Origin: a virus
Lineage: Duplodnaviria; Heunggongvirae; Uroviricota; Caudoviricetes
IMG/VR virus record: IMGVR_UViG_2877245776_000006
Direction: 5' to 3' (one strand)
Length of the DNA stretch: 64,000 nt
Numbering within the stretch: position 1 is the stretch's first letter; each line of letters opens with the position of its first letter. Made by a program: the position numbers. Positions 45,001 to 48,000 of this stretch are shown in pieces.

Positions 45001-48000
45001 GCTCTGGCGACTGGCGCACGAGTGGCGTTACTGCTGGCATTGGCCTGAAATTCTGACCTGTATCCGGTAACCGTTTACTACCCGCTGTGATGGCGGGTTT
45101 TTTATTGCCCGTACAGGGCAAAAACCGTAAATTATGCGTGGGTGCCTTTCGGCTGATGGCTGGAGGGAGAACCTGAAGGCCTGATGTGGAAAGGCCCCGA
45201 GTCAACCTAACGTTAACCCGAGGCCCTAACACTTCGTACCTTAAGCAAGTAGAAGGTTAGCGCCTCTCTGTAAAAGGAGTCAAGCGCTATGTCGCAAAAA
45301 TCGCTTATCACCGTCACAATTTGCATGACGGTTATCTTCACCATCTGGATGTTGCACGGTTCACTGTGTGAGTTCCGGCTGAATTTGTGGGGAGCGGAGT
45401 TTGCGGCGTTCTTACAGTGTAAGCAGTAGGAAAACCGCGACGGGGACGAAAGTCCCCGTCAACTGGTTGCTGAGGTTCAGCCGATATGGCACCCGTTTCA
45501 GGTGAGAGAATGAACGATAAAATTCTCCGGTATATGCAGCGTGTTGTGAGAAATTCCCGCAACCCTGAATTTATGAATGAAGTTAAAGACGCCTGCCTTA
45601 AAAAGCAGGCGTTTTGTTTTGAGGCACCTGATGGCTTTCTGGTGCTGCGTTCTGTGCTCAGTGCTGATGGTATCCCTTATGTTCTGGTGTTGCTGGGCGT
45701 GTGTACGGGGAGTAACAGCGTTGAGCGTTATCTGCCGGAGGTGAAGACATTAACCCGTCTGGCTGGCGGACGTTGGGCTGAATTTCATACGGCAAGGCGG
45801 GGATTTATCCGGCTGGGAAAAAGTCTGGGCTTTGAGCGAATGCCGGATGATGAGGATGGCTTCATGGTGTTCAGGATAGCGGTCTGACTGCCACAGTATT
45901 CATTATCGTGTGTAAACCAATTGCAATTCACATTCTGACCCTGCCCCGGCAGGGTTTTTTGTTATCCAGGGGGGGCCATTATGGGTGGAAGTAAAGGCGG
46001 TGGTGATACCAAAGTAAAACCAACAGCAGCGCAAATAGCACAGGAAGAAGTGGCCTGGAAAGGGTGGCAGGATTACAAAAATATCCTCCGCCCGGCTGAA
46101 GATAACTTCATGGAAAAGGTCGATGACCTGAACAGTGAGCAGCAGTACGACAATATTGCTGGCACCACAAATCTGGGGTATCAGAAACAGTTTGGCGAAG
46201 CACGGAAGAAGCTGGCGGGTAATCTTGCTCAGTCCGGTGTTGACCCGTCCAGTGGTCGCTTTAACGCGGTAATGAATGCGAACCAGAGTGATCAGGTAAC
46301 CGGGCAGATTGACACAACCACACGGGGGCAGGTATCGCAGGCAGATAAGTATGTTGCCGGGCTACAGGATGTTGCAGCTCTCGGTTCAGGTCAGAAGGCG
46401 GATGCGTTACAGAGTTTTAACTCGCTGGCAGACAGCAGTCTGGCAAAAGCTAAATCGGACGCACAGGCTGCGTTTACGAAACAGCAGGGGCGAGCCTCTC
46501 TTGTTGGCGCTGGTTTGGGTGCGGTAGGTGCATATGCGATGCATAAGGCTGGTGGTAGCGGAGGAAGTGGCGGTGCTAAAACACCGGGCACCGGCGCTAA
46601 TGCCATTCAGCATCAGGCTCAGAACTGGAGACTGTGATTATGGAGTACGGTAAATACGAAACACTTGCGAGATACGGTTATACCGGAGCTGCCCGTCCAC
46701 AGGGTGACTGGCAGACGTCAGCAGCGCTGACACGCCAACAATACGACGACTGGCGAACCAGATATTTGCCCCGCGTGGCAAGGCTGGCTGACCTTGGCGA
46801 GAACAACAGCCTGATGAATGCACAGCTTGCCCGGGTGGGCGGCCTTGCCACTTCCAGTCTCCGTACAGCGCAGATGGCGCAGGATAACCAGATGGCGAGA
46901 TACGGGGTAAGCCGCCCGGATAATCCCGACAGTAATACGCTGGGGTTACGTAATGCCCTGGCAATTGCTGGCGCGAAAAATGGTATCCGTGAAGCCGAAC
47001 AGGATCGCCAGATGAACATACTGACGGGGGCTTCTGCACCGGCAAGACAGAAACTGAGTGTTGGCGGACAACTGGTGGCAGCGTAAGGAGGAAATATGGG
47101 GTACGGCTTACTGGATATTGCGAATCAGTCACGGCGTGAGGCATTACAGGGAATAAGTGACGCAGACCGACGACGTGAAGAAATTGAGGCTGCGAACAAA
47201 CAGATGGCGGCGCAACAGAAAGCGCAGAACAAGCAGAATATCGGTACGGGCATTGGTACGGGGGCGGCTATTGGCGCATCCGTTGGTGGTCCTGTTGGTG
47301 CTGTTGCTGGAGCAGTAATTGGCGGCATTGCTGGTTCTTTGTTTTAAGGAGTGGTGAATGAGCGGATTTGCACAGGGGTTACTTGCCGGATTCAGCACGG
47401 TTGACCAGGCAATGACCCGTCGTAAGGAGCTTGGTCTGCGTGAAGCACAGCTTGCCCGGCAACAGAAAAATAACGAGCGCGATTTTGAGTTTGCGCAGTC
47501 TCAGTTTGAACATAATAAAAACGTTGATCAGCGGAACTTTGATTACAGAGCCAAAGTTGACGACCGTAATTATGCACTGAAGGAAAGGGAGTTTAACGCT
47601 AACCAGAATTACCGGAATGCGTCGCTGGGTATGGAGCAGCAGCGACTCCGGATGCAGAAATACAACCAGCGACGGCTTGAGTATAACGATATGCTGGCGC
47701 GCGATCAGCCTGTGATGGCGGCGCTTGGAAAGGCTGTGGATGCTGGCGATCGGGATGCAGCAATGCGTCTTTACGGCCAGTTGTCAGAGGGTAATCCGCT
47801 GAGGCTGATGGCGAATGATGGCTATGTAGCGAAAGCGGGTCAGGCCGTGAACAACCTGCAAAAAATCTTTGATGACAAGCCAGACAGGGCTATCGCTTCA
47901 CTTAATACGCCGGAGAATCTTGATGTCCTTTCCGGGGTGTTTGGCCCGGAACTGCAACAGCGTATTGGCATGCCCGATTCAACCGGGAAAAAGACGATAA

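Follow-up and report, generated by a model that had tools for sequence, protein, structure and literature searches.

A stretch of 64,000 nucleotides from a virus of the Caudoviricetes (IMG/VR record IMGVR_UViG_2877245776_000006; hereafter the window, numbered along one strand from its first letter) raises the question of what is encoded in the short spacer between lom and the virion genes downstream of it. An initial annotation, read from the sequence, had proposed that an unannotated Hok/Gef-like type I toxin lies there, accompanied by an antisense RNA; in the Shiga toxin (Stx) phage phi24B the corresponding spacer is known as the source of 24B_1, a 20-nt "microRNA-size" RNA (Nejman-Falenczyk 2015, PMC4426718; Bloch 2023, PMC10732415). 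We conclude that the spacer very probably holds a complete hok/sok-type type I toxin-antitoxin (TA) cassette, inserted as a separate unit into the late region of a Stx phage. The toxin gene as such is unremarkable, Hok/Gef genes being common in mobile elements of E. coli; its antisense partner is the molecule behind several papers and reviews on a microRNA-like phage regulator of Stx phage lysogeny and host energy metabolism, and the identity of this antitoxin RNA with 24B_1 is the main addition made here.

A Hok-family reading frame and its conserved cassette

The toxin open reading frame (ORF) runs on the plus strand from ATG 45289 to a TAG stop at 45427-45429 and comprises 46 codons and the stop, specifying the peptide MSQKSLITVTICMTVIFTIWMLHGSLCEFRLNLWGAEFAAFLQCKQ. 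Its product has the Hok-like layout that had been predicted, a membrane-spanning helix followed by a characteristic motif: residues 6-24 are hydrophobic and are succeeded by SLCEFR...AEFAAF. The Pfam profile HOK_GEF (PF01848) matches the peptide with 33.2 bits against a gathering score of 22 (E = 4e-8), residues 8-44 lying on profile positions 6-42 of 42. Also confirmed were the ribosome-binding site (RBS) and downstream hairpin of the initial annotation: a Shine-Dalgarno (SD) sequence, AAGGAG, is read at 45274-45279 on the plus strand, 9 nt 5' of the ATG, and the 3' untranslated region (UTR) contains a 9-bp hairpin, GACGGGGAC-GAAA-GTCCCCGTC, with the loop GAAA (45439-45460, plus strand). The interval first assigned to the toxin, 45289-45462, does contain the 46-codon frame, but the ORF stops at 45429, and 45462 corresponds to the end of the hairpin.

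Alignment to Hok/Gef peptides, which complements this family match above the Pfam cut-off, gave identities of 43% to HokA, 35% to HokW, and 26% to both HokC and HokB. Cys12, Thr14, Glu28 and Ala39 are invariant in both alignments made (with HokA, HokB, HokC and HokW), Cys27 is common to all except HokB, and the peptide has the Cys and Glu of the (S/D)LCE motif and the A-A/V-F motif of Hok proteins. The best NCBIfam model, the HokA equivalog NF007290, scored 38.4 bits, below its cut-off of 89, and the Hok subfamily model NF007279 scored 22.7 bits, below its cut-off of 73. Since the HokA score lies far under its cut-off, the peptide is taken as a Hok-family member without orthology to any named Hok; on these comparisons, the 46-aa peptide is a separate Hok subfamily.

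Whether the gene is unannotated, as first described, depends on the record consulted. Over positions 45060-45480 (421 bases compared) the window shares every base with Shigella phage 75/02 Stx (100% identity; NC_029120; window coordinates equal those of the record + 708), and its identity with 933W and VT2-Sakai/Sp5 is 99.3%; phi24B, 933W and the window have the same hok ORF, and the phi24B spacer is nearly identical. The original records of 933W (AF125520), VT2-Sakai and phi24B (HM208303) indeed leave the ORF without annotation, but NC_029120 labels it gp62, "MokW-like host killing", and E. coli genomes annotated by PGAP/RefSeq label it "Hok/Gef family protein" (WP_000078907.1). At least 1000 contigs encode exactly this peptide, which some sources call "protein HokA" or "small toxic polypeptide". 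The gene has therefore been named already by automatic annotation; the open-access literature searched contains neither a description of the locus as hok/sok nor an experiment on killing by its peptide or protection by its antisense RNA, and an unseen report is possible.

For comparative analysis, relatives were collected by scanning IMG/VR with an invariant 17-mer and adding E. coli loci, which yielded 71 distinct cassettes, 71-100% identical to the window. The 17 bases 45183-45199 are invariant by construction in the IMG/VR part of this set; for structure comparisons, 43 non-redundant relatives were used. None of the 71 cassettes has a disrupted ORF, and the product is 46 aa long (48 aa in one of them), in 17 peptide variants. 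Its median dN/dS (ratio of nonsynonymous to synonymous substitution rates) across the cassettes is 0.20, and variable columns are most frequent at third codon positions (36/46), less so at first (27/46) and least at second positions (16/46). The SD reads AAGGAG in 60 cassettes and CAGGAG or AGGAGA in the remainder, and the leader is conserved at least as well as the ORF, unlike the flanks. As judged from these substitution patterns, the 46-aa Hok peptide is under purifying selection.

The conserved unit as a whole, a hok/sok-like cassette of ~390 bp on the plus strand (45105-45494), is a self-contained insert located between the lom terminator (45080-45098, just upstream) and the next gene, with a promoter at one end and the fold-back element at the other. 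In relatives that are 80-85% identical, similarity begins at ~45105-45120 and stops at 45494, and the flanks are unrelated; conservation is 0.66-0.67 in the flanks versus 0.82-0.93 within the cassette. The conserved block therefore coincides with the predicted transcription unit. The same limits recur in copies located 3' of ogr in P2-like prophages, in a plasmid-borne copy and in one from a genomic island, which with the window makes four unrelated contexts. By megablast the cassette segment was found in 1675 of 5426 complete E. coli genomes (31%), at up to eight copies in each, and in 198 phage records. The 46-aa Hok subfamily, which lacks the leader frame mok (see below), is thus widespread, in a 390-bp unit that moves between phage types.

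Within the P2-like prophages the cassette always lies 3' of ogr at the right prophage end (~1217-1880 in four loci), beside differing host genes (serS, ihfA), which suggests that it is standard cargo of this phage group. On a single IMG/VR contig the cassette occurs twice, as diverged copies at 4361 and 5083 (722 bp apart). Species-representative genomes, searched with the peptide alignment, returned five loci only, two of them in Salmonella and three in unlikely hosts; the latter copies, identical or near-identical and labelled Xanthomonas pisi (an 857-bp contig), Planococcaceae (a metagenome-assembled genome) and Vagococcus sp., are most likely contaminating contigs.

These distributions bear on the possibility that the locus is a decayed and silent hok relic, its toxin never translated for want of mok, which persists along with lom or through co-option of its antisense RNA. 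The absent mok frame would fit such a history, as would the known inactivation of several K-12 hok loci, where insertion sequence (IS) elements adjoin hokC and hokA, and the healthy state of lysogens. Decay is nevertheless difficult to reconcile with 71 intact ORFs in 17 peptide variants at a dN/dS of 0.2, with the conservation of a strong SD and of RNA elements up to the cassette ends, with movement of the cassette as a unit among unrelated elements, or with its frequency and copy number in complete E. coli genomes, and we consider this explanation very improbable.

The cassette aligns along its whole length with K-12 hokC/sokC and hokB/sokB and with the 933W hokW locus. The aligned blocks occur in a constant order: -10 box; GGGTGC at the mRNA start; AAGGCCCCG...CCGAGGCC; GCCTC; SD and ORF; G+C-rich 3' hairpin; and terminal GGCACCC. 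In RNA terms, hokC and hokB line up with the window through the 5' GGGUGC, the GCCCCG...CGAGGC antisense terminator, the SD, the 3' hairpin and the terminal GGCACCC. Like R1 hok/mok/sok (parB) and K-12 hokA-E, the window locus combines a Hok/Gef peptide with an antisense RNA of ~60 nt opposite the 5' UTR, and an antisense start 43-49 nt upstream of the hok ATG is common to all of them; it differs from these loci in its peptide of 46 aa rather than 49-52, in the absence of a mok frame, and in its location, which is either a phage late region or the ogr end of a P2-like prophage.

A further comparison is provided by hokW-mokW-sokW, a type I hok/sok locus of the same Stx phage group, of which hokW-sokW (933W/Sakai prophage 5, Sp5) is an experimentally proven type I TA system (Takada et al. 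2021, PMC8621323). The hokW-sokW locus of Sp5 was our first guess for the identity of the window locus and was ruled out, as the hokW primers (Takada et al., PMC8621323) have no match in the window. HokW is a protein of 51 aa (MKQQKAM...), 35% identical to the window peptide, and is accompanied by an annotated mokW; its locus occupies 933W 58460-58734; the lom-proximal locus of that phage lies at 45431-45851, ~13 kb distant and in the opposite orientation. Both hok loci are carried by 933W and Sp5; the window phage has just the lom-proximal one, hokW being absent from it; 933W-type Stx phages thus have two separate hok modules.

The Sok-like antisense RNA and its identity with 24B_1

Type I systems are regulated by an antisense RNA, for which the initial annotation had pointed to the opposite strand near 45240-45300. 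A Sok-like RNA of ~63 nt is predicted on the minus strand from 45246 to ~45184, its ends placed by alignment to the annotated K-12 sokC. It is laid out as an unpaired 5' tail, a 16-bp hairpin and then UUU, with a predicted fold of -33.5 kcal/mol (z -5.7). In all 43 relatives the antisense segment folds with greater stability than its sense counterpart (-28.9 versus -20.2 kcal/mol), because G-U pairs turn into C-A mismatches on the other strand; such a bias in modelled stability would be expected if the hairpin were selected in the antisense RNA. Covariation in the hairpin is weak, being confined to 2 pairs of the antisense RNA alignment. A search for a sok-like promoter on this strand led to a candidate at 45254-45283, with -35 TTGACT (45283..45278), an 18-nt spacer and -10 TAACCT (45259..45254). 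The -10 box is identical in 71/71 cassettes and lies outside the pattern used for their retrieval, and the start at ~45246, 7 nt downstream of the -10, aligns with the annotated 5' end of sokC. The sok model of Rfam (RF01794) describes the hok leader on its sense strand; all of the model is covered by its match to 45140-45302 (E = 1.8e-5).

The published 24B_1 precursor is the Sok-like antisense RNA of the hok cassette, and the antisense transcript therefore exists. The 24B_1 RNA was described as encoded "between lom and vb_24B_43" at phi24B 45711-45692, with 2223 small-RNA reads at 80 min after induction (PMC4426718). In phi24B HM208303 these positions read TAACGTTAAGTTGACTCGGG; the equivalent in the window, UAACGUUAGGUUGACUCGGG (45215-45196, minus strand), has one mismatch to phi24B and is the single match in the window. 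Placed on the Sok-like hairpin, it starts 4 nt before the end of the 5' arm, runs through the loop and continues for 11 nt into the 3' arm. The 24B_1 precursor made in vitro (81 nt) begins GCUUAAGG, corresponding to window position 45246, and ends at 45165, so that the published precursor is drawn 18 nt longer than the Sok-like RNA predicted here. The promoter p24B_1 predicted by the phi24B authors (-35 TTGACT, -10 CGCTAACCT) is the antisense promoter identified above. The precursor is bound by Hfq with a Kd of 25 nM, according to the 24B_1 literature, and was detected by reverse transcription-PCR (RT-PCR) in the phi24B work, which together with the sequencing reads documents the short antisense RNA in a near-identical phage.

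The two accounts of this RNA share the same DNA, the precursor start at 45246 and the same predicted promoter; they differ in that the literature has a trans-acting, microRNA-like regulator where we read a fragment of a cis-antisense antitoxin. The words hok, sok and toxin-antitoxin have no occurrence in the 2015 paper (PMC4426718), the 2023 paper (PMC10732415) or the 2025 review, and in the open-access literature the sole paper to contain "24B_1" together with "hok" deals with each in a different section.

The constructs from which a function of 24B_1 was deduced can be mapped on the window. The published 189-nt deletion, located by its homology arms, corresponds to 45089-45277. It halves the lom terminator and eliminates both the hok promoter and the entire leader, along with the antisense RNA, the -10 box of that RNA and four SD bases. 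Primers for the "overproduction" plasmid match 44977-44996 and 45542-45523 and span 565 bp in phi24B, an insert that begins in the end of lom, contains the entire cassette with hok and reaches 57 nt into the next gene. The 2023 paper (PMC10732415) refers to the insert of pUC18_24B_1 as "the 189-nt region", where the 2015 primers give 565 bp. Deletion of the region reduced the numbers of lysogens and survivors and made the lytic cycle faster and more productive, and the plasmid had the opposite effects (24B_1 papers); ATP was lower in cells with the plasmid or the prophage, and IPTG (isopropyl beta-D-thiogalactopyranoside) impaired growth of the hosts (PMC10732415). Because deletion and plasmid both include the toxin or its control region, the reported effects cannot be credited to the RNA in preference to Hok. 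A Hok peptide that depolarises the membrane would be expected to reduce ATP, and the hok/sok identity would offer a simpler explanation, in which such a peptide lowers ATP and low ATP favours lysogeny. No claim is made that the growth impairment with IPTG represents Hok expression: the primer sites put the antisense strand under the pUC18 lac promoter, given the orientation of that promoter relative to the insert that we presume from the vector map.

According to the published view, the lom-vb_24B_43 spacer is non-coding and the ORF irrelevant; a precursor of ~80 nt is cut to trans-acting 24B_1, which represses d_ant and sdhB and thereby promotes lysogeny. This view draws on the 2223 reads of one 20-nt species after induction, on the opposite phenotypes of deletion and plasmid, on successful complementation in trans, and on binding of synthetic 24B_1 to an sdhB fragment in vitro, which was weak (<10% bound at 100 nM). 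It leaves unexplained, however, a Pfam-level Hok ORF with signs of purifying selection across 71 cassettes, and an RNA that agrees with Sok in position, promoter, length and fold; moreover, a deletion of 45089-45277 and a plasmid carrying 44977-45542 cannot separate effects of the RNA from those of the toxin. We judge the published view, in this form, very improbable. The antisense RNA may have a trans role besides its role in cis.

Accepting a hok/sok cassette leaves the matter of what it does for the phage. One proposal, compatible with our explanation at the molecular level, is that it serves life-cycle timing and not prophage stabilisation, with late readthrough on the plus strand titrating the antisense RNA so that Hok depolarises the membrane. 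There is a precedent in hokW-sokW of Sp5, which speeds lysis and doubles phage release (PMC8621323); the cassette lies on the late-gene strand directly 3' of the lom terminator, 24B_1 was detected only after induction, and plasmid- or prophage-bearing cells have less ATP. The effect nonetheless does not point the same way as that of hokW, since loss of the region leads to quicker induction and a higher lytic yield, and a timing function is in our estimation possible but rather doubtful.

Predicted folding and control of the sense transcript

The transcript of the hok/sok cassette would be a plus-strand mRNA of ~355 nt starting near 45140, as suggested by R1 homology and by folding. A putative promoter was read by eye at 45105-45133 (plus strand), with -35 TTGCCC (45105-45110), 17 nt, and -10 TAAATT (45128-45133). 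It agrees with the consensus at 8 of 12 positions, below the scan threshold; its hexamers are kept as TTGCCN and TA(G/A/C)ATT in most of the 71 cassettes, and it ends 6 nt upstream of the Rfam model start and of the K-12 hok mRNA starts. Support for both the sense and the antisense promoter comes from conservation, homology and published prediction, not from the consensus scan.

Four elements can be recognised along the plus-strand RNA. The 5' end consists of a tac-like element, GGGUGCCUUUCGGCUGA (45140-45156), which begins at RF01794 position 1, aligns with the mRNA 5' ends of hokC, hokB and hokW, and is invariant at 15 of 17 positions in the 43 relatives. Its alternative, ucb-like partner (45186-45198) can form 12 pairs with it, 100% pairable in the relatives; these pairs are all invariant, show no covariation, and lie partly within the pattern used to fetch the relatives. 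A target hairpin (sokT-like; 45220-45265) presents a loop at ~45234-45249 complementary to the 5' tail of the antisense RNA, and its lower stem is 100% pairable in the relatives, with changes of the one-sided kind only. The last conserved block of the cassette is a fold-back (fbi-like) element, UCAGCCGA-UAU-GGCACCC (45477-45494), which is predicted to pair with the 5' end.

The R1 hok mRNA, in the model of Gerdes and co-workers, is said to undergo end-to-end pairing and then refolding, and the window RNA as predicted matches that model in both respects. In the minimum free energy (MFE) fold of the 361-nt sense RNA (45140-45500; -155.1 kcal/mol, z -6.4), 45140-45156 is paired with 45477-45494. 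The fold-back element sought at the suggestion of the initial annotation is thus found in the predicted structure, but without two-sided changes among relatives. On modelled removal of the 3' end, the 5' end re-pairs with 45186-45198 and the SD and AUG open somewhat; in folds that lack the 3' end the sokT-like hairpin forms, and accessibility of its loop rises from 0.24 to 0.55.

Across the 43 relatives, 92% of the cells in the end pairing are pairable, versus 27-47% when the partner is slid; RNAalifold, given the 43 sequences, favours local pairing of the 5' end and keeps 4 bp of the end-to-end pairing. The refolded structure contains 76 cells with two-sided changes against 18 expected, a value reached by none of 500 shuffles, and these changes sit mostly in the 3' hairpin and in helices within the ORF. 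In the 3' UTR hairpin, 4 of 9 pairs have compensatory changes and all cells are pairable; read on the minus strand, this hairpin is followed by TTTT and has a terminator-like score.

The region upstream of hok departs from the classical arrangement. No start codon is present in the window at ~45235-45240, the positions aligned with the starts of mokC and mokB, and an in-frame stop at 45271-45273 precedes the hok ATG by five codons. A GTG ORF at 45186-45260 ends 5' of the SD and is broken by indels in relatives; 38 of the 71 cassettes have no ORF overlapping the hok start. The antisense RNA itself stops 28 nt short of the SD. An RBS-closing helix, AGCGC/GCGCU, is pairable in 43/43 relatives, with G-C to G-U changes only, and blocking the antisense target in the model lowers accessibility of the SD from 0.49 to 0.32 and that of the AUG from 0.43 to 0.23.

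From these elements a course of events may be proposed. The full-length mRNA would be locked by pairing of 45140-45156 with 45477-45494, and in this state neither translated nor bound by antisense RNA. Slow trimming of the 3' end would release the 5' end to pair with 45186-45198, allowing the target hairpin at 45220-45265 to form; the unstable ~63-nt antisense RNA would then bind the hairpin loop by its 5' tail, and the duplex would be degraded, probably by RNase III. Once the antisense RNA is exhausted, Hok would be made, insert in the inner membrane and collapse the membrane potential; the toxicity of the 46-aa peptide is predicted by analogy with the Hok family. Two non-exclusive routes of control may operate in place of mok, namely decay triggered by the duplex and an RNA switch. 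In the latter, which is a model only, antisense RNA lying on 45184-45246 would free AGCGC (45259-45263) to pair with GCGCU (45284-45288), enclosing the SD.

A more inclusive proposition, which we put forward tentatively as a serious candidate short of an even chance, joins these lines: 24B_1 would arise by breakdown of a Sok-like antitoxin whose hok cassette had been overlooked; the phenotypes ascribed to it (more lysogeny, slower induction, lower host ATP) would be caused wholly or partly by Hok or the TA pair; and the cassette would represent a mok-less subfamily that closes its RBS by an RNA switch and not by a leader ORF.

Several results weigh against a complete and functional hok/sok cassette. 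The consensus promoter scan returned nothing on either strand at its 9-of-12 threshold, which the antisense promoter misses because only three of six positions match in its -10. The RF01794 match scores 33.1, below the gathering score of 59, and Rfam at gathering level reports no sok in the whole window. A mok frame, sought in all three frames and in the 71 relatives, was represented only by scattered, non-conserved ORFs; given its absence, the translational coupling of classical hok/sok loci cannot be assumed. The scan detected no intrinsic terminator on the plus strand 3' of the fold-back element. The end pairing shows one-sided changes only and does not exceed its shuffle control, and both the end-pairing and the RBS-closing helices are conserved without compensatory changes, in structures derived from the window sequence. 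In the phi24B experiments, the antisense RT-PCR product was absent from lysogens before induction, which is unexpected for a constant antitoxin. Finally, the plasmid complemented the deletion in trans although the mutant lacks the antisense target, so that some effect does not proceed via cis pairing on the phage copy.

Neighbouring features of the window

The annotated start of the next gene, ATG 45486, falls within the hok fold-back element, and homology of the cassette ends at 45494; ATG 45511, preceded by GGTGAGAGA, looks a more plausible start. The ORF so annotated (45486-45887; L0129 of 933W, vb_24B_43 of phi24B) has no match in Pfam or NCBIfam. Inside it lies a strong, terminator-like hairpin at 45589-45612 (GACGCCTGC...GCAGGCGT) with T runs on both strands. 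Elsewhere in the window, Rfam gathering-level matches comprise STnc100 (141.9 bits, 22169-22427), which abuts AgvB on the opposite strand, and three copies of sRNA-Xcc1, at 16880-16963, 60634-60719 and 61171-61259.

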